Position numbers and translations under genes: made by a program. From Hormiphora californensis (lineage: Eukaryota; Animalia; Ctenophora): a DNA stretch of 64,000 bases. Every line of letters starts with the position of its first letter. Within the stretch, counting starts at the first letter, position 1. Below the pieces are notes generated by a model. The model made no database searches, was not told the origin of the DNA, and worked only from the letters and a program-made list of their open reading frames with translations. The stretch is from contig CM035355.1 in NCBI GenBank assembly GCA_020137815.1, positions 5,890,001 through 5,954,000 of the forward strand, in the 5' to 3' direction. Positions 2,694 to 64,000 of the stretch are shown one piece after another.

Positions 2694-2869
2694 AATCTGG
2701 GTGCCTTTCATTGCTAACAATTCGAAGTTTTAGTGTGCGTGACGGGTTAGGGCTAGGGCTATCCGTTAGGGTCTGGTTAGGATTTGGTTTGGAGTTATCG
2801 GTTAGGGCTATCGATTCTCTAACAGATACCGTTTAGTTTACTCAAATTGGCCATGTGGTTGCGTGGCTA
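2694..2869. mobile_element. left part of a ~250-bp MITE interrupted by LINE (right part 7076-7156)
   Basis: Joined halves match the intact copy at 7304-7552; TIR AATCTGGGTGCCTT/AAGGCACCCAGATT; break at GGCTA|TAGCCG. Confidence 0.75.
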
Positions 2870-3010
2870 AACATTCATAAACATTCATAAATAAATTAAG
2901 CATTGTACACAAAGTTTCAGCTCAAAAAGAGCTAACACTCAGACACCAAAGGGAGTCGGGTTTTAATGGGCAGCCAAACAACATAGAAAAGCAAAACACC
3001 CCTGAATGAT

Positions 3011-5968
3011 TTACTCTCTGAAAACACTCGGATCGTTTCTCCAATCCAACAGGGAGTTACTGTGCTGAACACTATACCCACGAACCGGTGGCTGGTCAGG
3101 GATGGTGGACAGATATTTACCGAGCGACTGCTTTAGCTCGAGTAGGGAAGCTGAAGATCTCACTACCCGAGGCACTGCATTCCACAACTGAGCTCCTTTT
3201 ACGCCGAATGATGAGTCATAGGGGCCAGAGATGGATTTTTGGGCCAAGTAGTTATACCGAGGAATTACCGCTCTGGTGCCAAGGCGTGGGTGCTCTGTAA
3301 ACAAGAGACTCGTACTGTTTGGTACTACCTTATGCAGGACCTTCCAGACGTGGATAATTATATATCGTTCTCGGCGCCGTTGAAGGGACAGGATTTTGAG
3401 GTGATGGAGTCTGTCCCAGTAATTCATGCCCGAACAACTCGCGATCCTGCGGGTGAATTGTCTCTGTGCCTCCTCAACCAGTGCAATATCTGACTTTTTG
3501 ACAGGGTTCCATAGGGGACAACAGTATTCAACCTGGGGTCTGACGATGGATTTGAGTAGGGTTAGCATGGTGTCATCCGATCTATCCCGAAACACACTAA
3601 GTGCCCAGCCACTCATCCGACGAGCCTTTGTCGTGATGCTGTCGATATGCTCCGACCATGCACAGTTTGTTGAAACAAGGACTCCTAGGTCTTTGACGGA
3701 TTCGCTGGGTGATATCGTTTCGCCTCCAGGCCCACTGTAGGAGTAGTTTTCATTGGAGAATGGCAGCTCTCTTAACAGTTGGGTGGATCGAAGAGTATAG
3801 TTCATAACTTCAAATTTGTCCTGGTGTAGAGACATGTTGTTCTCTGTCGCCCAACGTGCAAACACAGCTAGACTTTTCTGGAGATCCTCTCTATCATCCA
3901 ATGACTTGATTGCCTTCCACAGCTTGGAATCGTCTGCGAAGGTGAGGACTGTGCCAGAAAGAAGTGTCTCTATGTCTATCATATAGACTAAAAACAACAA
4001 GGGACCAATAACTGTACCCTGTGGGACACCACTGATGACCATTTCCTCCCGAGACTGAGCACCATCTACCATCACTGTTTGTACTCTTTCTGAAAGGAAG
4101 TTGTTGATCCAACGGTGTAGCTGTCCCCGAATACCGTATTTTTCCAATTTTGCCATCAAGACCTTGACATCGACTTTGTCAAAAGCCTTCTCCATGTCTA
4201 AATACACAACATCCACTTCGTGTCCGTTATTCAGTTCTCTCATGACATTATCGTAGTGGTTTAAGAGTTGAGTCAAGCAGCTTCTGTTCCTCCGGAAACC
4301 ATGCTGGCCATCGTTGAAGAGCCCATTTCCCTCCAGATGATCGACAACTTTGTTTCTTACAACTCTCTCAAATGTTTTAATCATGTGGGAGGTGAGTGCG
4401 ACAGGCCGATAATTTTTAGCCTCCATTTTGGATCCTTTCTTAAACACGGGTGTTATATATTGGCGTTTAAGGCATGTTGGTACGACACCCTCATGGAAAG
4501 AACAATCCCAAAGTAACCATAAGGGGTATGCCAACTGTTTCCGGCACTTGGACAGTATAACCGCTGGTATGTCCCCTGGTGGGGCTCCAGCGTAAGGATC
4601 TAACTCAGCCAATGCATCCTCAATACAGCCGGGAGTGAAATCAAGATTGTCCAGTGTGATGGTCGTAGAAGGAATATCCTTAGTAGCCTCCTCGGCCGAA
4701 CATTTAGCAGGATCGCTGAATACCCCCACATACTGTGACTGAAGAATGTTTGATTTCTCCAGAGGATCATCGGTCACCGTGCCATCAGGTCTTAGGAGTG
4801 GGGCCACACTAGACTTGATTTTCCGATGCTTGTTCACAAATGACCAGAAAAACCGTGGATTACATTTGATAGTGTCAATAGCCTTTCTCTCTCTTCCTTC
4901 CAGAAGCCCAAGGAGGTGAACCTTTATCCTATCACCAGTCTTCTCAATTTTACGGTTAAGCTTATCAATCAGTGACTGGTAGGAACATCTCTCCCTAGCA
5001 AGTTTTAACCGGGAGTTCAACTTTTTCTGTCTCCTTTTCAATCGTTTCAGATAGGGATCCCTCTTCTTTAAATTGCTGAAAACCTTCCGTTTACAATGTT
5101 TTTCGAACACGCCTAGAACAATCTCTGTAATACATTGGACATAGGCGTGGCCGCCATCTTCCATGTCATATGGAGCTAAGTGTTCGTCCCAGTTGATAGC
5201 GTCTAGCTCCTCACGTGCCCCGGTGAAGTCAGCATTGTGGTAATCAAGTGCCTTGAACCCTCTAGCAGCTCGTTTGCAGTCTGACTTAGCCTGTTTCAGC
5301 CCAACTCCCAGAATGCAAGAAACGAGAGCGTGGTCAGACATTTGGGTCGCCGTTACATCCATGTCGAGGACATAATCCACTCTATTCGTAAGAACAATGT
5401 CCAAGATACTCCTACCTCTCGTGGGCTCCGTCACTAGTTGTGTAAGAAAATTTTTCTCAGCAAATTCAACCAGGGAGTTACTCTGGTCGGTTGGAAGGTT
5501 TGACCAGTTTACATGGGGCATATTGAAGTCACCTAGCACAAAAACCTCAGGAGGACAATCACCGGAGGAATGGCGTTGAATAAACTCCTCCAGGATTCCG
5601 ATAACTTGGAGTGGGTTTGATGTGGGGGCCCTGTAAACTGTTGCAATAACGAAGTTTGAGTTAGGAATGTAGACTGCAACGACACTATTACAGTTATCTG
5701 AGAAAGCAACCTGATCAGAGGGGGACAAGGATGAATGAAGATATAGGGCACAGCCACCCCCCACCCTGCCGTCCCGATCACTGCGTATAATAGAATAACC
5801 GGGGATACCCACCTGGGCATCTGAAAATTCAGCCCGCCACCAAGTTTCAGTAATGGCTACGGCCATGGCAGGAATATCAGAGTTACAAATAGTGTCTTTA
5901 AGATTCTCCAGCTTGTACCTTGTTTCGCTACTTGCACTCGGGTTTAGACTGCGAGCATTTAGCAGCAT
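3011..5968 (-). CDS. LINE-A ORF2: AP endonuclease + reverse transcriptase (frame open upstream to ~6283)
   Basis: ITETW, GDFN, SDH (APE); YRPVALTS, QHGFR, GVPQG, FADD (RT); SLQRRRER C-terminal motif. Confidence 0.95.
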   Translation of the reverse strand: MLLNARSLNPSASSETRYKLENLKDTICNSDIPAMAVAITETWWRAEFSDAQVGIPGYSIIRSDRDGRVGGGCALYLHSSLSPSDQVAFSDNCNSVVAVYIPNSNFVIATVYRAPTSNPLQVIGILEEFIQRHSSGDCPPEVFVLGDFNMPHVNWSNLPTDQSNSLVEFAEKNFLTQLVTEPTRGRSILDIVLTNRVDYVLDMDVTATQMSDHALVSCILGVGLKQAKSDCKRAARGFKALDYHNADFTGAREELDAINWDEHLAPYDMEDGGHAYVQCITEIVLGVFEKHCKRKVFSNLKKRDPYLKRLKRRQKKLNSRLKLARERCSYQSLIDKLNRKIEKTGDRIKVHLLGLLEGRERKAIDTIKCNPRFFWSFVNKHRKIKSSVAPLLRPDGTVTDDPLEKSNILQSQYVGVFSDPAKCSAEEATKDIPSTTITLDNLDFTPGCIEDALAELDPYAGAPPGDIPAVILSKCRKQLAYPLWLLWDCSFHEGVVPTCLKRQYITPVFKKGSKMEAKNYRPVALTSHMIKTFERVVRNKVVDHLEGNGLFNDGQHGFRRNRSCLTQLLNHYDNVMRELNNGHEVDVVYLDMEKAFDKVDVKVLMAKLEKYGIRGQLHRWINNFLSERVQTVMVDGAQSREEMVISGVPQGTVIGPLLFLVYMIDIETLLSGTVLTFADDSKLWKAIKSLDDREDLQKSLAVFARWATENNMSLHQDKFEVMNYTLRSTQLLRELPFSNENYSYSGPGGETISPSESVKDLGVLVSTNCAWSEHIDSITTKARRMSGWALSVFRDRSDDTMLTLLKSIVRPQVEYCCPLWNPVKKSDIALVEEAQRQFTRRIASCSGMNYWDRLHHLKILSLQRRRERYIIIHVWKVLHKVVPNSTSLLFTEHPRLGTRAVIPRYNYLAQKSISGPYDSSFGVKGAQLWNAVPRVVRSSASLLELKQSLGKYLSTIPDQPPVRGYSVQHSNSLLDWRNDPSVFRE

Positions 5969-6009
5969 AAGTTTGGAAAGGTTGCTGGGAACTGAGGGTT
6001 TCTCGGAAG

Positions 6010-7075
6010 CTAATACGACCGTCTCCCCCTCTGCTGATGAGGGCTGAAGGTGTAACCTGTTCCTGCCGGCAGTTGAGCCGGTTGGGTGTGTTGGGAGTAT
6101 AACTGGTCTGGAAGTAGAACTGGTTCTGGCTCTGGACGGTTCCTCATCTCTGTTCTCACTATCCCGGCTATTGAGTCCCTCAGCCGGTCGAGGACTGCCT
6201 CTAAAAAAGCAGCATCTGGTCCAGGTCTCTGATTCTGAGACTGGGACCAGTGGACTCCACTCGATACCCTCGCCCTACTGGGTTCACTTGACCAAGGTCC
6301 TGCATCAGGTGCTTGGTTTTGACCTGTGGTTCGTGATTGGGCTGAAGGGATTCTTTCACGGCGGTTCCTCTCATTTCCAGTCCCACGTGATGTTCCTTCT
6401 CCAGGCCTAGTCCTCAGGGTGTCCCTCAAGTGATGTTTGGTACAGCTCAGTTTATAACACTGGTGCCGTAACTCTGAATTCTTACACAGTGGAGGGTGGA
6501 AAAAGTTACATTCAGTGTTCTGGCATCCAACGCTCCTCATAGATCCATAGTTGCAAAACTTTTTGCACAGTGTAGGGTGAGATTTGGGACAAGATCTGCC
6601 ACTAACTAGCTTCGTCCCATCTCTCCCGTGTCTGCACCTCCTTTGCAAATAAAACCTACACACTTCGGTTCCTGGAACACCCCTCTCTCCCTGTTCCGGT
6701 GGGTCCGGTAGGTCCTCTCGCTCCTCTGCAGTTCTACTGATGTGCCTTCCCAGGATCTGCTCTCGGTTTGAACTACGTCTGGTCGAGTTATGACTAGGAT
6801 CTGGCCCACCGTCAGGTAGATGGCTAGTAAACCTTTCCAGAGTTTGTTTACCGAGGCAAGGGGAGCACACCCAAATTCGGCTTTTGATAGCAGTGCTGCT
6901 GGCCTCTTCTCGTATCTTTGCACAGTTGTGCAGACCGCCACCACAGATGAAGCACCGAGCAGGGGGATTTTCATTTCTCTTCACGGAATACTTTTCGGTA
7001 CACTCGCTGCATGTTTGGGGACCAAATCCCTCTATCCGCATGATGATCCAGTCAGCCAGGGTTGTTACTGAATGG
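6010..7075 (-). CDS. LINE-A ORF1, N-terminus truncated (ORF-track N-terminus derives from flanking MITE)
   Basis: CSEC..CFICGGGLHNC..WVCSPC PHD-like motif and three CCCH-like fingers; aligns by eye with ORF 39566..40879 from YHSVTTLADW onward. Confidence 0.85.
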
Positions 7076-7303
7076 TATAGCCGTTTGAAAAAAGTCGGTC
7101 TAAGTGTACTCTTCTGGTAGCGTGCACCTGTAAACAGGCTGCAAGGCACCCAGATTATTTGGCAAACGTTGCTGGCCCCGATAGCGCAGGATAAGGCAGC
7201 GCTTTTCAACCAAATTATAGGGATCCCTAATAAAGTTGTGATTTGTCACAAAACATGTGGTTCCCGTGGCGCGGGCGGTGCGGCTTTAAAACGGAAAACG
7301 TTA

Positions 7304-7552
7304 AAATCTGGGTGCCTTTCATTGCTAACAATTCGTAGTTTTAGCGTGCGCGACGGGTTAGGGCTATCCGTTAGGATCTGGTTAGGGCTTGGCTTGGGGT
7401 TATCGGTTAGGGCTATCGATTCTCTATCAGTTACCGTTTAGTTTACTCAAATTGGCCAGGTGGTTGCGTGGCTATAGCCGTTTGAAAAAAGTCGGTCTAA
7501 GTGTACTCTTTTGGTAGCACGCACCTGTAAACAGGCTGCAAGGCACCCAGAT
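7304..7552. mobile_element. intact copy of the ~250-bp MITE
   Basis: TIR AATCTGGGTGCCTT...AAGGCACCCAGATT; near-identical to 2694-2869 + 7076-7156. Confidence 0.7.
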
Positions 7553-7637
7553 TATAATCATCATCATCATCAATATACACTTATTATCCCGCTTTTTAGC
7601 ACATATTACAAACGAATAAAGGATACTGGATAGTTAA

Positions 7638-8581
7638 GGGTACACCTGGCGTTTTTCATCATCGAGTGCCCAGGATAACGACTTCACCAGGGTTTAGGTC
7701 ATACAAAATGGACCTCAAATATGCAATTTCAGCCCTGAAGTCGAATTCATATTTTTGCTACAGCCCATTTTCAAAGTGGCGTTTTCTCAAATTTTTTCGC
7801 AATTTTTGACCCCAGGACCACACTTTTTGAGATAGGAACATAAAATTCTGGGGATTTGAAGAGAATATGAAGGTAAATAAGCCTAAAGAAGGATTTTTGA
7901 AATGGAGCTCATTTATGGCCTTGAGAACGGTTTACTTTTTTACGTCTTTGACACGCTGTCTGAGAATGTTCCCATGCTTCATTAGGGATGAAAATTTGGT
8001 GAAAGTTGCTCCTAACGATTGTCTATGTGGCCCAAAAATTTTGGAACTTTCCCGCCAAAAGTGTTACCTGCAGAGCCGAAATGGTAAGCCTAGTTTTCTG
8101 GCAGAAAATGCCCTTTTCCTTGCAAGACTTTTTGCACATTTTTTGCGATAGAGGCATGAAATTCGGGGAATTTGAAGACAATAGCAAGGTAAATAAGCCC
8201 AAAGAAGGATTTTTGAAACGGACTTCATTTGTGGCCTTGAGAACGGTCTACTTTCTCCTATCTTTAACGCCCTCTCCAGGAGGCATCCATGGTAAGTTAA
8301 GGTTAAAAATTGGTGAAAAGATGCTTCAAACGATTGTTTATTGGGTCCCAGAATTTTAACACCAACCCACCAAAGATGTTGTGTACAGAGCCAAAACTGT
8401 ACACCTAATTGATGCAGATGTGACGAAACGCTATTTGGTCACGTCAAAACACATTTTCAGAGGTAGAAGCATGAAATGATGGTAATTTGAAGAGTATATA
8501 AAGGTATTTTGGACGAGATGAGTGAATTTTGAAATTGACCTCATCTCTGACCATATTCCATGAGAAGGGTCTCCGGTTCGA
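7638..8581 (+). repeat. left TIR (944 bp) with ~317-bp internal imperfect repeats
   Basis: Reverse complement of 12676-13619 with constant coordinate sum 21257; mirrored ORF-track translations are identical. Confidence 0.95.
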
Positions 8582-8750: not shown

Positions 8751-11700
8751 CTAAACATGGGCTGTGTACAACTTCCGTTTCTCTAAACAGGATTTCAATT
8801 GTCTGGCTGTCGCCCCAAGCCCCTTCAACCACTCAGCTGCTTCATCCGGGGTGAACTGCAAGTATTGATCACAAGTGATGAGTGTTTCCATTTTCGCTGC
8901 AAGAGCGGGTGTCACAAGGTCAGCTTTGAGGAGAGGATTCTTCTTCCGTGCTCGCAATGACTCAAAACTTTCAGTCTTGGAAGTAAAACTTTTTATCGCC
9001 AACTTACGGTCTCTAACTATACATGCAAGCGCCTCACTGTCCCCCAACGCGTCATGAAGATTATGGCTACTACCACCCAAAGCATTAGCAAGTGACCCAC
9101 GCACACCTAAGACATTCATTAGATCACCTAAGAAGAGGTTCTTCCTCATTTTGTCCAATACCGGTCCATCGAGCAAACAACTGTGATGAAGCAGGACATG
9201 ATTATCGAAGGCATTGTTGTTGTAGCCGACCAACAAAGCCTGACCGTTGCATCCTGTGAATATCCATTCTATAAACTCGGCTAAGGCTAGCCGTAATGGT
9301 AATGTAGAGAGCTTTTCCAGCTGGTGTGGCCAACGCCTCACCAATTCATTGTTCACTAAATATAGGTTGTTTACGGCACTGGCGTCTGGCGGAATTGGCG
9401 CTGTAGGTGTAACATATTGTGTGAAGGTTCTTGTTATCTGGTAGGTGTCCATGTTCAGCTCCACTGCTCCAATCTGAAGGTGCAAATTGTTCAATCAGGC
9501 TGTTCATGAGCGCTCCGAATGCTAACATGAAATAATATTTTAGTATAAGTCGGAAAACTGTCTCATATACTGACCTGCAATATGTCTGATGTCCTGAACA
9601 GTCCTCCAGTCTCAAAGTCGAACAAAAATAACCGTTTCCCCCGTATAATTTGTGGGGCATCCAGCTGAATCATGGCAGTGGTACTCAGTCCCACTCCCCG
9701 ATCATACTCCGCCATTTTATGTAGGTCAGAGTAGATTTTGCTCTCTCTCTGTTTTTTAGCCTTCCTTACATGTTTCTCACGGGCACTAGAAGAGGAACCA
9801 GACGGGGTCTTCCGTTTACCTAGAATTTTCACAGAGATTATAAGTGGTAACTAATGATTTGATGACATGACTTTATTCGGATGTGTATTTTTTACCAAGT
9901 CTAGCTAATGCTTCATCAGGAAGTTGAGGGAGGTGTAATTTCTCGTGATATTTTCTAACTGTCCATTGAATCCCGTCATTTCTAGTAGCCACTCCCAAGT
10001 TCACTCGTGGATTTAGGTTTGTTGAGTAAGTGTTATGTTTATGCCCGGTTCGCTTGGCTATATCTTTATGCACGCTCTCCACCTAGTGGAACAGTTGATA
10101 GTTGAATAGTTGAATAGTTGATCACTGTCAAGATAAATCAATGAAATCATTCATATCCATCTATTCTAACCTGGCTTGTTGATTTCATGTCGGTAAGTGT
10201 AGGAGTGATGAGAGCATAATCACTGAGTAAAGATTTCAATTTGTCCAACTTCTCCGATCTGATGTGACTGAACCAAGATTTTTTCTCGCCACCAGTACAT
10301 TCAGCTGTGCATCCAGTATGATCCCCTACCGCATGTGCCACGAGAGCCTAGCATTGAGTACCATTGTTATGATATTGAATACTAGCGGGTTTGTGTGAGA
10401 GAGAATAAGAGAGAAAAATTATAGACAGGGAAAGTTACCACTCTAACACTGGGGATCACAGATCGGTGATGAAACTGTATTGATATCAGTTTTAGTTGGT
10501 TGCAGTACACGTACCTTGAAGTATTGAGACATCCACTCGTCGTCTTTCTTGAATTCGAATGCATCGCTAACTTTCTTCATAAAATAGTCACGTGCGCCGG
10601 ACGTTGACTTACCCCAAATGCCCATAATTCTCCCCTTCAAATTCTTTTTCGTGTGGTTCTTGTCCTTATTGATCCTGATATTTGGAAGGACTTCCTGCAA
10701 CAGAGAGATAGAGGGATAGAGGGATAGAGGGATAGAGGAGAGAATCCTTATAGAGATGGAGCGATAGAGAAACCTGAAACCCACCCAGGGGTGAAACCCA
10801 CCCAGGGACCACTAGAATAGTACTTCCTAATACCTCAACTCCCGATTCAAAGACCTATTTACACTTATTATACCTTGATGGCCCTAGTGGTATTTCCATC
10901 ATTATCCACTACTATGTCACCAATTTCGGTTATCTGGCTCAACTCGCTTAGACATTCTTTCATTCCTACAGCCTCCATACTTTTTGCTGTACCAGAATAG
11001 TTTTTGGCACACTCCCCCGAATGTCCTTTGCCAAACATGTTGCACCTGACAAAAATTATGCTCCGTTATCTACCGCTACGAAAGAAAGAGGCAAGTTATC
11101 TATATGACTACAATGACGTAGATTTGAGACATGGAGTTACCAACGGCAAATATGTACCTGGTACATTCCCTGTTGAATACACAGTGTGTGAGGATCTTGT
11201 TTGACTTCTCTCCTAGAACCATCACGTTTCCTGATAAATTAGTGTCAGTCATTGTAAAGCTCCCACTTGCATGAATGACGAATGTAACAAATTGTTGTCA
11301 TATTTATTATTTTACCTGAAGTGGCATTATTATTAGCACGTGTGTGCCATGCCCCGTCTGCTTTGAGAGATATCCCGGCTTGTCGACCTTTTTCATCTAA
11401 TGATTTCCTCATTTCTTCTTTCACTGCCTTCCTTTCTGATTCCGCAGCTACAGCAGCAGCCGCAATGTTCTTCTGAGTTGGATCCTGCGAGTGGTAGTCG
11501 GGGGGCAGCAGACCATTTGACAGGAACATGTTCTTGGAACTCTCGACATTGGTACCAATTGCGTCGAGGGAGGCGCAGTACCTCTTTATTGTATCTGACG
11601 TATTCTCTACCGATGGTTGTGTGGTTGATTTATTGCAGTTGATACAACGTGCTGATACCATGCCCCAAAGATGTTTGACGGTTATTTTTTCAACATCTGT

Positions 11701-12336
11701 GAACTTGAACCCAATGTCACAGTAACTGCATTTGAAGCGAGAGAAGAATCTGGTGTCAATGATGAATATTCCGTCAGGAAAGTGAGAAGGGGGTGCAAGT
11801 GGTAAGGAGGAGGGAACATCTTCAGCAACTTCATCCAGATCCATTGGTTCCTCTGAGCAAGGCGAAACATCTGCATCAGCTGAAAAACATGCTGCACCAA
11901 CATTTGTATCTGACTGTTGTATATCATTATCAGGCACAGCAAGTTCGTCAATGTCATTGGTTGATGATGACTGTTCCGGATCAGTTTCATCGTCTATTGC
12001 GTTGTACTCGGTCCTGAAACGAATCACATCTTCTTCTGCCCTCACAAACGCATCGTGTGCGCAAAAGTCATATTTTCTGCGACATGCCCGCCTGTCGCTA
12101 CATTTCCAAAGTTTCACCTCTACGTTGGAACAGATTTCAGTCATGGTTGTGACGTCATCGTACTGGGGTCCCGCTAAAGCTGACAACCATATCAGCTCCG
12201 CGTAATCTTCTCGATTACACCTCTGCCTACCACCATAAGACACTGCAATCCCACAACGACAACAATGCCACTCTGCTAATCTCATTTCTAATTCATTCAA
12301 GAAAAGCTCTGCTTCTACTTGAGGTGTCAGTGCCAT
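8751..12336 (-). CDS. 8-exon DDE transposase fused to C-terminal DEDDh exonuclease, ~925 aa
   Basis: GT-AG exons 12336-11316, 11230-11158, 11045-10874, 10694-10515, 10347-10171, 10082-9896, 9819-9575, 9473-8751 join in frame; ADGAWHTR, CAKNYSGTAKSME, VDNDG, DKNHTKK, SQVESVH; FDFETGG, FDNH, HDALGD. Confidence 0.88.
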
Positions 12337-12675
12337 ATTCTGAGAAATCTAGTGTTTTTAATTGAAAATTTGGGCATAGCTTCCGCGGGGGACATACCCC
12401 CCACTTTATTTTTTTCAGACTTTATGTTGTTGCTCACCTGTATGCCTAGAGTACATTAGATCCATAGATCATTGTACGCTACACATACATAACAAAAACG
12501 GTGAATATGCAACTGGTTTTTTATCACGTCATACCTGTAGATAAGACATATTATGATACCAACATTGCATATTATACCAAAGCTATATACGACAAGCAAA
12601 TTCTATACTGAAACTAATAAAAAATGTGCAATTGGTTTTTATACACAGCTTCACCGCTGTTTTTTAATTCCTTAT

Positions 12676-13619
12676 TCGAACCGGAGACCCTTCTCATGGA
12701 ATATGGTCAGAGATGAGGTCAATTTCAAAATTCACTCATCTCGTCCAAAATACCTTTATATACTCTTCAAATTACCATCATTTCATGCTTCTACCTCTGA
12801 AAATGTGTTTTGACGTGACCAAATAGCGTTTCGTCACATCTGCATCAATTAGGTGTACAGTTTTGGCTCTGTACACAACATCTTTGGTGGGTTGGTGTTA
12901 AAATTCTGGGACCCAATAAACAATCGTTTGAAGCATCTTTTCACCAATTTTTAACCTTAACTTACCATGGATGCCTCCTGGAGAGGGCGTTAAAGATAGG
13001 AGAAAGTAGACCGTTCTCAAGGCCACAAATGAAGTCCGTTTCAAAAATCCTTCTTTGGGCTTATTTACCTTGCTATTGTCTTCAAATTCCCCGAATTTCA
13101 TGCCTCTATCGCAAAAAATGTGCAAAAAGTCTTGCAAGGAAAAGGGCATTTTCTGCCAGAAAACTAGGCTTACCATTTCGGCTCTGCAGGTAACACTTTT
13201 GGCGGGAAAGTTCCAAAATTTTTGGGCCACATAGACAATCGTTAGGAGCAACTTTCACCAAATTTTCATCCCTAATGAAGCATGGGAACATTCTCAGACA
13301 GCGTGTCAAAGACGTAAAAAAGTAAACCGTTCTCAAGGCCATAAATGAGCTCCATTTCAAAAATCCTTCTTTAGGCTTATTTACCTTCATATTCTCTTCA
13401 AATCCCCAGAATTTTATGTTCCTATCTCAAAAAGTGTGGTCCTGGGGTCAAAAATTGCGAAAAAATTTGAGAAAACGCCACTTTGAAAATGGGCTGTAGC
13501 AAAAATATGAATTCGACTTCAGGGCTGAAATTGCATATTTGAGGTCCATTTTGTATGACCTAAACCCTGGTGAAGTCGTTATCCTGGGCACTCGATGATG
13601 AAAAACGCCAGGTGTACCC
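12676..13619 (-). repeat. right TIR (944 bp)
   Basis: Inverted copy of 7638-8581. Confidence 0.95.
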
Positions 13620-29381: not shown

Positions 29382-34857
<5,476 letters not shown>

Positions 34858-38424: not shown

Positions 38425-38715
38425 ACTTGCTAGAGGAAGAAAGAGGTTTGGGTTCTGTGAACTACTAGCGCACCAGGTGGTATTGCGTGTTCAGTATTGA
38501 CAAGTGGTCCATCCAGCTGACGGCTCCACGCCTGTCCTGAGTCCCAGGACAATATCACACACATAATTAACGAAGCTAGACTGTGTACTGTGCGTAGAGA
38601 TCAAAGTTTTCGGGTGAAAGCAGGGTAAACACCATTTAGTCGGGTCTAAAAGTGGGAAAAAGGAGCGATTTTGTCACAAAATCGAAGCCGCGAAAATAAA
38701 GTTTTGAAAACTTTA

Positions 38716-39164
38716 TAGGGATCCCTAATAAAGTTGTGACTTGTCACTATAGTCTTGCGGAGGCGCGGTTGTGACTTGTCACCGCGTGTGTGCGTACCAA
38801 AACGCACGTGGTTCCCACTGCGCGTAGCTGCGGCGCGGCGTAAACCATGCGGTGACAAGTTACAATCGCGCATTTTGAAGCCGCGCCGCCACGGGAACCA
38901 CATGTTTGGTGACAAGTCACAACTTTATTAAAGTCGGATTTTTTGAAACTGTCACCCCCCTGAAATAACAAAATTTGCCATATCTCAGGTTCCTGATAAG
39001 ATAGAGACTTGAAATTTGGAGGTTCGGAAGAACTTAGCAAGATCTTTTTAACCTCCAAATTTCAAGTCTCTATCTCGTCAGGAACCTGATTTATGGTCAT
39101 TTACGAAATTTGAAAATACCCAGGGGGGTGACAGTTTCAAAAAATCCGACTTTAGGGATCCCTA
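38716..39164. mobile_element. MITE (TAGGGATCCCTAATAAAGTTGTGAC TIR) with a second TA-flanked palindromic MITE (38931-39152) inserted in its right TIR
   Basis: Right TIR split at TA; partial copies of outer element at 7218 and 43997; relative of the inner element at 59388-59562. Confidence 0.75.
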
Positions 39165-39565
39165 TGTTTATGAATCAGCGATTTTTTTAAAACAAGTTGG
39201 CGCGGCCGCGGACAATGCAATTTTTTGCGCGTTCCATTTTGCGCTTGACTTGGCATCGAAAACAATTTATTTTTCCGCCCAGTTCAATTTTTTTAAATTT
39301 CTTAACACTGCACGTTAATCTAATCTAATTTATTAATCTTATTGAAAAGCGCTGCCTTATCCCGCGCTGCGAGGGGCCAGCAACGTTTGCCAATTAATCT
39401 TATATGTACTGATTACCTTGATTTTTATTCCGTTTTAATTGGACCGGCAACCCCGGCTTTAACACTGCACGTGTAAAAAAGTGAAAGTGTGTAAAAAACT
39501 TTTCAACACTACTTTAAACAAATTAATTTGAGGCGGCACCCTCCCTCAAATTTCCCGTGTAGACA

Positions 39566-40879
39566 ATGTCAAACACCAAAGAAGAGGAGAACATCGATAG
39601 TTCAATCAAGAGGAACACCCTTGACGAGCTTAAGAACAGCGCTGATCCATCGGCTAAGCGAGTTCTCGACACCTTCTCCGTTGACGGTACTGTATGGGAC
39701 AACTACCACAACTTCATGAAGTTCCCCAAAGACCCACTTGAAAGTTGTGCCACCTTCCTTGGCTTAACGGTTAGGTCAGGGGGCGATAAACAGTACAAAA
39801 ACTTGGACAATGTAGCTCACCGGTGCGTATTAATGATCGAGTCACTCTTCCCCTCCACGTGTACTGAATGCAAGAGCCAGTATCAGGTAGAATTTCGATC
39901 CAGTCCACCGCTCTACTGTTGGTTGTGTAACCGAGGTTCCCATGATTGCGAGAAAATGGTCACCTGTGCGAAGGCACTACAGGACCTACCTGATGGAAAA
40001 CTCCTGTCTGGTATGACATGGCTTTGCCACTCTTGCGTTGTGACTACTGACCTTTCCCTGTGGTCTAAAGTCCCTGTTAAAGCTCCTCCCAAGAAGAAGA
40101 AACAACATGCCAATTCCGCTGAAATCCATACTCCTGACATCTCGACATCTGGGGGTCCCAAGCTGGATGAGGAAAACAACAATGATCCCATAAAGACCAC
40201 TCCGTGCATGCATCTTGCTAATGGTAGGTGTTTACATGGAATGAGTGGGAACAAGGAAATTGCAGGCAAGAAATGCCCTTACTTTCACCGAAAGATTTGC
40301 AGAAAGTACAAGGTGAATGGGCTGCACCCTAAATACGGCTGTAAGAAAGGAAAGGATTGTCCTAAGCTCCACCCTAAAATATGCGAGGGTTCCCGTCGGA
40401 AACGCAAGGAGAGGGTATGCACCACTGAAAATTGCCCGCATCTTCACTTGAAGGGAACACGGAGACATCTTAACTTTGAAACAAAGGAAAAGCCTGAGAG
40501 ACCCGATACAAGGAAGAAAAAGGATTCGGAACTCCCATTGAGTGGCTCCCCCATACGTCCTGCATCACAGGAAAAACCTGAACTGGTACAGTCGGGTTTC
40601 TTGACTCAATTCTTGAAGGAAGTCAGATCAAGTCGAGAAGCATCCCTTCGCCAAGCAGACAGGATGGACGAAATACTGAGTCAGCTGACCGGAACCCAGG
40701 AAGACTCAATCGTACTTCCGGTACAGCAAAGCCAGCATTATGTTCTGCCACCATGGAACGCGTCCCAAAAGCACACCCTGGCCCAAAACGTTATCCCAGC
40801 GGGAATGCAGATGACTCAGGGTATGTACAACAGAAACCGATACGCATCGAGTCAAACCTTTCCAGGATCCTCGTACTAA
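39566..40879 (+). CDS. LINE-B ORF1 (PHD-like + CCCH zinc fingers), 437 aa
   Basis: CTEC..CWLCNRGSHDC..WLCHSC; three CCCH-like fingers; homologous to LINE-A ORF1. Confidence 0.88.
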   Translation: MSNTKEEENIDSSIKRNTLDELKNSADPSAKRVLDTFSVDGTVWDNYHNFMKFPKDPLESCATFLGLTVRSGGDKQYKNLDNVAHRCVLMIESLFPSTCTECKSQYQVEFRSSPPLYCWLCNRGSHDCEKMVTCAKALQDLPDGKLLSGMTWLCHSCVVTTDLSLWSKVPVKAPPKKKKQHANSAEIHTPDISTSGGPKLDEENNNDPIKTTPCMHLANGRCLHGMSGNKEIAGKKCPYFHRKICRKYKVNGLHPKYGCKKGKDCPKLHPKICEGSRRKRKERVCTTENCPHLHLKGTRRHLNFETKEKPERPDTRKKKDSELPLSGSPIRPASQEKPELVQSGFLTQFLKEVRSSREASLRQADRMDEILSQLTGTQEDSIVLPVQQSQHYVLPPWNASQKHTLAQNVIPAGMQMTQGMYNRNRYASSQTFPGSSY

Positions 40880-43800
40880 ATGGTCGAGGAATCTCGCCAG
40901 CGGTCTACGGTGGAACTTGTTGGAAGTTACCTTACATCGAGGAAATCATCGTGGGCTCCGACAGCACTGGTCCTCCAACAATAGCAATCTCCATAACAGA
41001 AACCTGGTTGAAAAGCTACGTGCAGGATTCTGAGATTTCAATAGCTGGATTTAGTCTTTTCCGTTCAGATAGACCCGAAAGACGGGGAGGCGGTTGTGCC
41101 CTGTACATTAAGGATGAAGTGACAATCACCAAAACCTTCACCATAAGCGACAGGCAGCATAGCCTGGTTTTGGCCTACAGTGAACCAAAACATATCTTGT
41201 TTGCCTGTTTGTACCGCCCACCAGACTCCGAGGACACTGCGTTTCATTCCCTTATGGACACATTGCAGGAAAAAATTGCTGAATTTACAAATGGTAATCG
41301 GACACCGGATATTTTCATTACTGGAGATTTCAACCTGCCCCTAATGAATTGGGATAGCTGTTCTGTCCCTACAAGTCCACCATGTAAAGCTTACCAGCGA
41401 TTAATGGACTTTATAAACGATAACTTCGCAACACAGGTTGTCGACCAGCCCACTAGGGGGCACAATATACTGGATCTGGTATTGACAAACTCCCCTGAAA
41501 GTGTAGCTAACGTTTTAACAGAAGATGTCCCTAAACTATCTGATCACAAGGTAGTTGACTGTATCTTAACATTCAACCCCATCCCAGAAGACCCGCCCAA
41601 GACTCATCAGTGGGATCACATGGAGTTCAGAGGAATCAACGTCCACAAAGGAGATCTTGAACAAATTCGGGTGGACCTCCAATCAGTTGACTGGACAACA
41701 TTATTGCAAATCTGTGAAGATGATGGTGACTACGAAGGGGGAGCTGTTTTAAGGAGCTCATCATAATGACAGTTTTGCAGATAGCGATTATTAAACACTG
41801 TCCTAGGAAGCAGAACCGAGGAAAAACTCGAAAAAGTCGCCTTGAACCGCCTGAAGCGGCGAAAAAGGAAACTCAGGACGAGGATCTCTGCAATTCAAGC
41901 AACAACCCCAGGTTCAATTTCGCTAAACAAGATACAGGCCGAACTTCTATCCCTGGACAAGATCATCAAGAGCGCCTGGTGGAAAAAACGCGAAGAGGAG
42001 GAACGGAAGGCTATTGACACCATTAAAGTCAACCCTCGGTACTTTTACTCCTACGCAAAGCGGTTCCTAAAGTCTGTTTCTTCCATTGCCCCTCTAAAAG
42101 AAACGATGGATCCCTCACTGATGACGATCAGGAGAAAGCAGAGCTTCTACAGTCACAGTACTGTGGAGTATTCAGCGACCCTAATGGGGGTGACTTGGAG
42201 AAAAGTCTGTACTGGCTGGACAACGTTGATGCCCCCGTCTTGGAGAACTTCACCTTTTCTTCTGAAGACATCAAAAATGCCCTCTCTGAGCTCGATCCCA
42301 ACTCAGCTGCCCCGGATGGTGATATTCCGGCCAAACTTCTTGTAACATGCAAGCAAGAACTGTCCAAACCTCTCTACTTGCTTTGGGAGCGGTCACTTAG
42401 GAATGAAACTGTACCCATGAGCTTGAAACTCCAGTACATTTCACCTATATTCAAAAAAGGAGATAAAACCAATGCTGCTAACTATCGTCCAGTATCCTTG
42501 ACGTCAAACCTGTTAAAGACCTTTGAAAGAGTAGTTCGCAACCATCTGGTGGACCATCTAGAGAGTAACAACCTCATCCCAGGAAATCAGCATGGGTTCA
42601 GAAAGAACCGAAGTTGTCTCACACAGCTCTCTAGAACATTACGACCACATCATGAGAGAACTCAACAGTGGAAACGAGGTTGACGTAGTCTACTTGGACT
42701 ATTCCAAAGCTTTCGACAAGGTCAACCACTCTATTTTGATTGCCAAACTCGAAAAACTTGGAATAAGAGGAACCCTGCTCAACTGGATAAAGGACTTCCT
42801 TTCTGGTAGGCTTCAAACAGTTACTGTCAATGGAGCCAAATCATCCTTCAGGAAAGTACTTAGTGGAGTCCCTCAAGGGACAGTACTAGGCCCAATTCTG
42901 TTTATCATCTATGTTGCTGACCTCCATCTACAAGTCCACGACTCGAGAACATCTACTTTTGCTGATGATACAAAGCTCTCCAAGGCGATCAGTTCCGGGT
43001 CAGGAACACAATCAGAAAGCGAGCTACAGGAAGACCTTGACAGAGTTGTTGAATGGTCCATTACTAACAGTATGGTACTCCATGAGGACAAGTTCGAAGT
43101 CCTGCACTACTCTCTATACATTCCAGATACACTAAGTAACCTCCCAACAGTCGTCCAACATCGCTGCTATTTAACTCCTAGAGGAAACTTTATCAGTTCT
43201 GGGCATCAAGTTCGTGATCTAGGAATCATCATGTCTGACGACGGGTCTTGGACTCAGCATATCGACAGGATCGCCTCCGATGCAAGGAAAATTGCAGGAT
43301 GGGCACTCCGAACATTTCAGGATAGGTCTATTACCACTATGATGACACTCTACAAGTCCCTCATCCGGTGTAAACTGGAGTATTGCTCACCCCTATGGAA
43401 CCCCAGAAAAATTTCTGACATTCAGTCACTGGAAAGCGTGCAAAGAAAATTTACACGTCGGGTGGATAATATGAAGCAGTACAGCTATTGGGACCGCCTG
43501 AAAAAGCTGAACCTTATGTCTCTGCAACGAAGAAGAGAGAGATACACCATCATTCACATGTGGAAAATGTATAACGAAGTTGCACCCAACAGTACCAACA
43601 CACGATTCTACATGAATGATAGGACAGGAGTTAAAGCTGAAGTACCATCTCTATTCAGCGGTGCCAGAGGGACAGTAAAAACTAAGTTCTTCGACTCCTT
43701 CGCTGTTTAAAGCGGCGAGGCTATGGAATACATTGCCTAAGAAGGTTAACACAGCAGATGACCTGGATCAGTTCAAGATTCTGCTGGGACGATGGCTCGA

Positions 43801-43900
43801 CCAGTTCCCGGACTGTCCGCCCGTGACTGGGTATCCTACTCAGAACACTAATTCAATCCTGGATTGGGTGCTGGAAGTGAGAGCCGAGAGGGGGATGTGT
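40594..43900 (+). pseudogene. LINE-B ORF2 APE + RT, broken by ~5 frameshifts (decay or assembly error)
   Basis: Consecutive ORF pieces 40753, 41766, 41842, 42195, 42592 with ITETW, GDFN, SDH, YRPVSLTS, GVPQG, FADD, SLQRRRER. Confidence 0.88.
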
Positions 43901-44088
43901 TAAAGGACACTGACACCTTGTGTTTTTCATTGAAGTTATTTATGAAGTTATGAAGTTTAAAAATGAAAGCGAAGCAACAACGAACTGGCTGCACATAGGG
44001 ATCCCTAATAAAGTTGTGACTTGTCACTGTAGTCTTGCGGAAGAGCGGTTGTGACTTGTTACCGCGTGGTGTGCGTACCAAAACGCAC

Positions 44089-62354: not shown

Positions 62355-63431
62355 CTAAGAGTTGCTGGTGGAAGCAGATACACTACTAGTCCCTGTGATA
62401 ACCCCGGCAGCTGCATTGGAAACCAGTGCCCGAACATAACACGCAAACCTCCTATTGGTAACGGTATACAGGATTGGATTCCCGACCACTGCGAACCACA
62501 GGAATACCGCCGCTGTGAGGTTCAGCTCACCACCGATAGTAACTCTCCCTGGCAGAGCTACCCCGACCACATAGACACCAATATAGGGCGCCCAACTTAG
62601 GGCAAAGAGACCACATATTGATGTTGTGGTGATCAGGGCCTTTGACCCTGATATTCCTCCACTGCGCTGCTGATTGGCTCCCCCACTCCGCTGCTGATTG
62701 GTTCCCCTACTGCGCTGATGATTGGCTCCCCAACTGCGCTGCTGATTGGCTCCCCCACTGCGCTGATGATTGGCTCCCCCACTCCGCTGATGATTGGTTC
62801 CCCCACTCCAATTGGGTGTTGTATGCCGGAGGGCAAGAATTAGGATGAATACGTTGAGTGTGGTGATAAGGCACAGTGGAATTACTACCACGATTGCTAT
62901 AAGAATTCCAACCAAGAGTGCGTTGTCAGGGGTAACGATGAGAGAGCACCAACCAACAAGTGGGTAGAACCCAACCTCCATACCATGGCACAGGATAGAC
63001 ACCACAGGAAGAACAGGACTTGCCACCCATACACATATTACGACTACTTTCGCAGTCCAGGCTGATTGAACTCGAAGGGGTGATAGGAGGACTCTAAGAC
63101 GGTGGCATGCGATTGAGATCACAGTGAGAATATTAACTGTGGTTGTTATGTATCCTGACCACAGCTGAAAATCACAAAACACCGAACCAAATATCCACCG
63201 ACCAGCAGTGTAGGTGATGAAAGTGGGTAGAATTATCAGGGAAGTGTTTAGGAAGTCTGCAAAGGCAAGGTTTTGAAGGAATATCAGGGAGACATGGTCC
63301 AGTTTTATGGAGTCGTAGCGGAGAGAGGAGTATAGTACCAGGCCGTTTCCTAACAAGCCAGTGGTGAAACAGATTAGTCCAAATGGTATCAGGAAGATTC
63401 GCTGAGTTATGGAGAGGGAGACTTCATCCAT
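62355..63431 (-). CDS. intronless class A GPCR nested antisense in an ATR intron
   Basis: LLGN (TM1), NLAFAD (TM2), WIFG..C, ACHR at DRY, SWAPY (TM6), NPILY (TM7). Confidence 0.92.
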   Translation of the reverse strand: MDEVSLSITQRIFLIPFGLICFTTGLLGNGLVLYSSLRYDSIKLDHVSLIFLQNLAFADFLNTSLIILPTFITYTAGRWIFGSVFCDFQLWSGYITTTVNILTVISIACHRLRVLLSPLRVQSAWTAKVVVICVWVASPVLPVVSILCHGMEVGFYPLVGWCSLIVTPDNALLVGILIAIVVVIPLCLITTLNVFILILALRHTTPNWSGGTNHQRSGGANHQRSGGANQQRSWGANHQRSRGTNQQRSGGANQQRSGGISGSKALITTTSICGLFALSWAPYIGVYVVGVALPGRVTIGGELNLTAAVFLWFAVVGNPILYTVTNRRFACYVRALVSNAAAGVITGTSSVSASTSNS

Positions 63432-64000
63432 AACTACGAGAATTGAACTGGATTACGGTTGGAGTACTTGTTAAAATCGGCTGTTCGACATTGGTTACGT
63501 CATAGCCGTTGCGACGCTGTCTACGATATCAGGACAACTAAGACGTGTGGGAAAAACAATCAATGTCAGCGTCTTAGACGCCGTAGGCAACGCTTTATGC
63601 AGGCGGCCAATGTGACGAGGCACCACTGAGGAAAAGAAGTTAGAAAAGTAACAACTTCATGCCAGAATTTGCAGTTTAAATTATATTGCAGATGCGAAAA
63701 ACCTAAGGTTAGAAATTTCCTAATAGAAAATAGAAGAGTGGCCTGAGCAGAATCGACCATACAGCAAGAGAGAAAAGGGGAAGGATCATTATAGGCAGGA
63801 GCCAGGCAGGTGTTATTAGATATTATTAGAGAATAATATACTAATAATAGAGAGAGCTCCTTAGAGAATAATATACTGATAATAGAGAGAGAGCTCCTTG
63901 AGCCTACTCATTCTTCAGTTTGTATAATATTCTTCATAATAAAGGCTCTTTTCTCCTTCAATTATAATCCCAGATCTTTTTCCACTCTGAATCTCACGCC

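Follow-up and report, generated by a model that had tools for sequence, protein, structure and literature searches.

A clade of APE-type non-LTR retrotransposons, two members of which lie in the window (the whole 64,000-nucleotide stretch of DNA analysed here), probably employs programmed -1 frameshifting at a slippery heptamer within ORF1 to yield an ORF1-ORF2 fusion. This view comes from comparative sequence analysis: in all ten loci compared, a canonical X_XXY_YYZ heptamer stands in the ORF1 phase and ORF2 overlaps ORF1 in the -1 frame, which gives strong comparative support to the proposal of such a fusion made in the first-pass annotation for the family of one of these elements, LINE-A. 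Because the slippery heptamer is conserved where the long overlap begins, a ribosomal -1 fusion is the likely source of the copying enzyme; the slip site itself is real, conserved and most likely functional. LINE-A is composed of the following features:

2868..7077, minus strand: LINE-A, a 5′-truncated APE-RT non-LTR retrotransposon lying in a local repeat copy (flank match).
6010..7077, minus strand: ORF1, with the first ~75 codons missing and its stop at 6012-6010 (read from the sequence).
6275..6277, minus strand: stop that opens the -1 (ORF2) frame, 66 nt 5′ of the heptamer (read from the sequence).
6202..6208, minus strand: slippery heptamer U_UUU_UUA in the ORF1 phase, ORF1 reading GCT TTT TTA at 6210-6202.
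5978..6201, minus strand: linker of ~75 codons in the -1 frame, S/T/P/N-rich and predicted to be disordered, lying under the helix and tail encoded by ORF1, with both frames coding as far as 6010.
5966..5968, minus strand: ATG, a rival start, residue 80 of the predicted strand 77-83, the first endonuclease strand.
3011..6274, minus strand: ORF2 frame, 1087 codons from stop to stop (ORF list and Pfam).
~5941-5321 and ~4438-3737, minus strand: APE endonuclease and reverse transcriptase, respectively (Pfam PF14529, PF03372, PF00078).
2868..3010, minus strand: 3′ UTR, ending with two copies of a ~10-nt tandem unit (read from the sequence).

An ORF2 with APE and RT domains, no LTRs, a simple-repeat tail at the 3′ end and a 5′ truncation mark LINE-A as an APE-type non-LTR element; no target-site duplication was seen at LINE-A. 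Its flanks (7076-7158 and 2682-2869), put together, correspond to a repeat copy that lies intact at ~7293-7555, each flank matching one half of it. This host repeat is short and very abundant, with a contig depth far above that of the LINE, and pieces related to it also adjoin the second LINE of the window (38713-39400 and 43995-44027). The 5′ truncation falls close to 7077: the nearest ORF1 relative is ~75 residues longer at the N-terminus, and contigs from other LINE-A copies continue into the missing start of ORF1. Having lost its 5′ end, this particular copy probably just preserves the signal passively. The family is present in contigs under organism labels A and B (contigs aligned to 5600-7200), and the stretch 6164-6208 is free of substitutions among the 40 contig rows listed, beside which there are 104 more. 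The one RNA-labelled run aligned here does not span the junction. In the overlap, at 6077-6132, one contig omits 54 nt, a multiple of three that leaves both frames intact.

The ORF1 protein is organized, in order, as a PHD-like Cys/His domain, three CCCH-like fingers, a basic linker, an x-Phe-Leu motif, an amphipathic helix and a Q/P-rich tail, where the names PHD-like and CCCH-like are a reading of the invariant Cys/His spacing. Pfam detects in LINE-A ORF1 a weak FYVE_2 match alone (E 0.014), and a protein atlas offers zf-CCCH as a lead for the ORF1 family (10-24% of members, score <0.9). No Pfam match to RRM, CCHC, transposase-22 or esterase, which characterize the ORF1 types I-IV of the CR1 group, was obtained for the 5′-truncated ORF1. 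As for ORF2, its top match among solved structures in a profile comparison is L1 ORF2p (E 4e-69).

The heptamer reported in the first-pass annotation does lie in phase with ORF1 at 6208-6202, and the 5-nt spacer described after it is present at 6201-6197. The same seven letters constitute the HIV-1 gag-pol slip site, as the first-pass annotation stated and as the accessible text of PMC5009743 confirms. No other canonical heptamer lies in phase within the ORF1 portion of LINE-A, and ORF2 contains two in 986 codons. A -1 stop had likewise been placed ahead of the heptamer; it exists, at a distance of 66 nt instead of ~75. From there, as anticipated, the -1 frame remains open past the ORF1 stop into APE-RT, 1087 codons down to 3011, with Pfam matches to APE and RVT_1.

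LINE-B, the second LINE of the window, spans 39566-43950 and presents the same arrangement with a different heptamer:

39566..40879, plus strand: LINE-B ORF1, full length, of the same family and 25% identical to that of LINE-A.
40594..40600, plus strand: heptamer G_GGU_UUC, in phase, 12 nt past the -1 stop (read from the sequence).
40582..43900, plus strand: LINE-B ORF2, in the -1 frame with a 298-nt overlap, later broken by frame changes (read from the sequence).

G_GGU_UUC is the sole in-phase canonical heptamer of LINE-B ORF1. It is located one codon upstream of the aligned Phe-Leu, whose codons are freed (TTC TTG). The Ser/Thr-Gly-Phe-Leu motif of this ORF1 also occurs in three other ORF1 proteins (P0057, P0077 and P0091), which suggests that these and LINE-B may form a subfamily with the slip site shifted by one codon.

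Elsewhere in the window, the segments 7831-8438 and 12819-13426 are identical and inverted, with the same ORF translations on opposite strands, and they flank ORFs 8751-9494 and 11245-12348; the whole is probably a DNA transposon whose terminal inverted repeats are long. Two single-exon ORFs of ~350 codons, at 33304-34350 (plus strand) and 62355-63452 (minus strand), give from their sequence the impression of seven-transmembrane receptors.

The comparison at the DNA level comprises LINE-A, LINE-B and eight metagenome loci (L001-L006, L013 and L023), the latter being those with this ORF1 among the best 80 of 326 relatives retrieved by an endonuclease scan of 11 of 64 metagenome parts; none of the loci retrieved stands near enough to LINE-A for a covariation analysis. 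Two further loci (L018 and L076) were left out, since their weak ORF1-profile match covers only the PHD-like part and they fall outside the clade. The ten loci form one clade in a quick endonuclease tree (SH-aLRT 99), with endonuclease identities of 32-60%. Loss of the heptamer or of the overlap from the family had been named beforehand as an argument against frameshifting; both are kept throughout, with overlaps of 202-544 nt and the preceding -1 stop 6-66 nt from the heptamer. Specifically, nine loci have the exact T TTT TTA and the remaining one has G_GGU_UUC, and the T TTT TTA codons are found at none of 43 other x-Phe-Leu sites. After the heptamer, the -1 frame contains no stops against 1.4-7.5 expected per locus; in the control frames, 3-10 stops occur in the +1 frame and 2-16 in the -1 frame upstream of the site. 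Given the amino acids and the pooled codon usage, T TTT TTA in nine of ten loci has p ~1e-15, and the joint probability of the open frame is ~1e-17, both figures treating the loci as independent and being weakened by shared descent. The ORF1 proteins of L006 (2-2750) and P0190 reach 916-942 aa through repeated N-terminal/PHD-like modules, and the slip site of L006 is unchanged. Scans of viral contigs and prokaryote genomes returned no relatives.

A related signal emerges at the protein level. The ORF1 profile matched 2879 clusters at E <=0.001, and 120 near full-length ORF1 proteins, taken from the best matches, were aligned. Amid an otherwise variable region, the Phe is kept in 113 of 120 and the following Leu in 108. 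Moreover, the residue preceding the Phe is in none of the 113 cases one without a U-ending codon (E, K, Q, M or W), as compared with 20-37 such residues at each of seven positions upstream and 60 of 152 before other Phe-Leu pairs. Phe-Leu is also the start of a conserved amphipathic helix, and part of its conservation may therefore reflect protein constraint (N-cap); helix capping could add to the protein-level signal, so that the DNA-level comparison is needed. Taken to its extreme, the helix would mean that Phe-Leu is kept only for the function of the ORF1 protein and that heptamer and overlap are by-products. However, neither the synonymous codon choice (nine of ten loci against none of 43 other sites) nor the open -1 frame can arise from protein constraint, and for this reason the by-product reading is largely refuted and keeps a very small probability.

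The codon choice also bears on an explanation at the RNA level, namely that the motif is a 3′ splice acceptor (a U-run plus AG) and that splicing fuses an exon from further upstream in ORF1 with the ORF2 frame. The U_UUU_UUA sites are readable in this way because a G follows all nine of them, and an acceptor would equally predict an ORF2 frame open from that point. Nevertheless, an acceptor would permit CTA or TTC, yet TTA (p ~2e-4) and TTT (p ~5e-4) are found in nine of nine sites. In addition, the residue after Phe-Leu cannot begin with G in 32 of 107 ORF1 relatives, LINE-B possesses no AG and has a different slippery heptamer instead, and in other clades A_AAA_AAC or G_GAA_AAC occupies the same place. 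The upstream pyrimidine tract is inconsistent too (10-70% pyrimidine), and other AGs lie within 20 nt in eight of the ten loci. All this makes splicing quite unlikely. As to the six-T run present in nine of ten loci, RNA polymerase II could slip on it and add a base, some transcripts thereby having ORF1 and ORF2 in frame. Six Ts are, however, short for polymerase slippage, LINE-B is without the T run, and the run keeps the one phase that slippage on the ribosome would require. Edited RNAs would moreover be copied back as in-frame elements, and no in-frame fused ORF1-ORF2 protein was found among the ten loci or among proteins of 1022-2915 aa (a weak search). Polymerase slippage is accordingly given hardly any probability.

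In place of a fusion, ribosomes that terminate on ORF1 could reinitiate at its stop or close by (from AUG 5968 in LINE-A) to translate ORF2, the heptamer then being a relic or a minor route. Such an arrangement has some points in its favor: the AUG of LINE-A is 42 nt past the ORF1 stop, LINE-B has an AUG in strong context at 40753, within its overlap, and in six of ten loci the ORF1 stop falls on the Leu-Asn codons of the endonuclease, so that reinitiation without an AUG could serve as an additional route. Furthermore, reinitiation has been proposed for L1. Translation of L1 ORF2 is said to begin independently of its AUG in the available portions of PMC5009743 and PMC1965478. On the other hand, reinitiation leaves unexplained the invariant heptamer codons and the 62-174 codons of open -1 frame upstream. 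Initiation at ATG 5968, the outcome that the first-pass annotation had set against its own proposal, is disfavored, as this ATG is not conserved and is inside the predicted strand beta-1. Specifically, an AlphaFold model built on a 43-row alignment puts it in strand 77-83 (pLDDT about 90), with the first ~60 linker residues disordered; the single-sequence fold was unusable (pLDDT 34), and phmmer against PDB gave no match. The profile alignment with L1 ORF2p begins 9 residues ahead of the endonuclease Asn. Between the heptamer and this Asn, Met is absent in four of ten loci; in LINE-A and L013 the sole Met is at -3 or -1 from the Asn, within strand beta-1, and the remaining four have it further up, from -14 to -47, at unshared places. 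One Met is located just 5′ of the heptamer in L001. In other words, an AUG for ORF2 conserved across the clade is absent. In the four nearest ORF2 proteins (74-80% identical), the annotated start lies within the endonuclease; this hints that they have no AUG there, although such calls depend on the gene caller. On balance, reinitiation as the source of ORF2 is unlikely.

Returning to frameshifting, the RNA around the slip site of LINE-A contains two predicted structures:

6164..6196, minus strand: predicted H-type pseudoknot after a 5-nt spacer, with S1 at 6196-6190/6181-6174 (one bulge) and S2 at 6187-6182/6169-6164 (base-pairing prediction).
6216..6250, minus strand: predicted hairpin ending 7 nt 5′ of the slip site, a possible attenuator (z -3.3 and -4.0).

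The stems proposed in the first-pass annotation are present as a base-pairing possibility, S2 ending at 6164, one base past the 6165 given there. Its broader description, a canonical cassette with a pseudoknot, holds at most for the LINE-A subfamily: a pseudoknot stands above background in LINE-A and L004 only, of the ten loci, and no consensus fold was found over them. In an H-type scan scored by rules made for this analysis, the LINE-A pseudoknot is the best of 1384 windows of the element, the three top windows being the same structure, and an unrelated structure near 5783 scores nearly equal to it. Of 2000 synonymous shuffles, 4 attained its score. The relatives P0001-P0006 (49-87% identical) keep the same residues under S2, which fits pairing and is not proof of it. 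The nested fold of 6120-6215 is ordinary (z 0.04), Rfam gave no match in 5900-6400, and loop 3 measures 3-4 nt, a shortness that raises steric doubt for a pseudoknot. Taken together, the chances that the predicted pseudoknot acts as stimulator in LINE-A are about even. In the other loci, hairpins at p<0.05 occur only in L001, L005 and L013 (combined p 0.013), and L002, L003, L006, L023 and LINE-B display no notable structure. A hairpin of the 6216-6250 type was not seen in most other loci, and no shared strong helix pairing the 3′ end behind the slip site was detected in the five loci with a 3′ end (LINE-A, LINE-B, L002, L006 and L023). The stimulator appears to turn over within the clade.

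The mechanism that we propose would operate as follows. Most ribosomes would complete ORF1, producing the protein with fingers, helix and Q/P tail, and a minority would slip back one base at Phe-Leu by tandem tRNA slippage. The resulting fusion would begin with the N-terminal, PHD-like and CCCH-like domains of ORF1 and continue through 60-190 residues of disordered linker into APE and RT, and would be devoid of the ORF1 helix and Q/P tail. A rare slip would thereby set a high ORF1:RT ratio, as in Gag/Gag-Pol. Since the element has no protease, the fusion would stay whole.

Similar arrangements recur in other groups of APE-type LINEs. Among 72 further loci of the metagenome set, 34 are without a long abutting ORF1; of the 38 with one, 31 have ORF2 overlapping in -1, three in +1 and four after an in-frame stop. 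Within the 31 loci in -1, 21 have no upstream Met and 16 a strict heptamer. G_GAA_AAC is found in phase in 15 loci and A_AAA_AAC in eight, within the -1 overlap and mostly without an AUG; two heptamer groups can be named (L011, L015, L016, L022, L030, L033 and others; L018, L035, L040, L047, L066 and L077), and most G_GAA_AAC loci form one related group in a quick tree. In the four in-frame cases, ORF1 and ORF2 share the frame with one stop between them, TGA in L008, L014 and L057 and TAA in L009. After the three TGA stand CTA, CTT and CTG, contexts that presumably resemble those of read-through, although in L008 and L014 a Met comes shortly afterwards. The accessible part of PMC5009743 includes G_GA among the first triplets that are tolerated.

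How LINEs translate ORF2 is a long-standing question. With one seven-letter site kept over a very large clade (2879 ORF1 clusters, 120 proteins examined), the question becomes testable with reporters. We lean slightly towards a wider conclusion, that -1 frameshifting is a standard and ancient route to RT in much of the APE-type LINE assemblage, beyond Dictyostelium, and that in this clade it would rely on an HIV-type site just before the ORF1 helix, generating a Gag-Pol-like protein that stays uncleaved and supplies the enzyme with PHD-like/CCCH-like fingers of its own, with stimulators freely exchanged. If this is true, annotation changes, as ORF2 starts are now called inside the endonuclease; the enzyme would carry the ORF1 fingers as a fusion protein, and the list of natural -1 sites in eukaryotes would gain many entries whose stimulators vary.

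Among known elements, the named database matches are bird RT proteins (27-33%), which we take to be CR1; in a quick endonuclease tree of unnamed rows and bird proteins, the LINE-A clade is instead separate and long-stemmed. With the CR1 group (CR1, L2, Crack, Daphne, Kiri and Rex1) it shares the APE-RT ORF2, the short tandem 3′ tail and the PHD-like ORF1 domain. The ORF1 types described in the available text of PMC4120745 are without CCCH-like fingers, and that text mentions neither 'CCCH' nor frameshifting; likewise, the accessible portion of PMC13343379 is silent on frameshifting, overlaps and start codons, and that of PMC5006619 contains nothing relevant. A slippery heptamer was not found described in the literature for this clade or for other animal LINEs, and Repbase entries could hold such notes.

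Different solutions have been reported for ORF2 and related frames. In SART1, stop-start coupling is used. Mammalian L1 and Candida Zorro3 face the same bicistronic ORF1/ORF2 problem, but their ORFs do not overlap; in the sections available of PMC5009743 and PMC1965478, L1 initiates ORF2 unconventionally and Zorro3 needs its ATG. The reviews, in their accessible parts, offer initiation-type answers for L1 ORF2 and leave TART unknown. Drosophila HeT-A, whose gag is said to need a frameshift (PMC5009743, in the text available), has no RT, unlike the clade. For Paramecium non-LTR elements, recoding of ORF2 has been suggested from consensus sequences (PMC5405496, accessible portion), by +1 frameshift, reinitiation or read-through as opposed to -1. 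The -1 frameshift in LINEs has a stated precedent in Dictyostelium, where the APE-type non-LTR elements TRE5-A and TRE3-A require it for ORF2 according to a figure legend of PMC5911963; host and ORF1 are different there, and the present comparison follows a specific heptamer through a whole clade.

The closest parallel is with HIV-1 gag-pol, whose U_UUU_UUA is identical in the passage available of PMC5009743. Further likenesses are the structural ORF placed first, the RT ORF in -1 without its own start and a predicted mixture of Leu and Phe at the shift. In contrast to HIV-1, the clade consists of non-LTR elements without a protease. Finally, the HIV stimulator is a stem-loop, whereas in the clade a pseudoknot is predicted for one subfamily and hairpins of various kinds for others.
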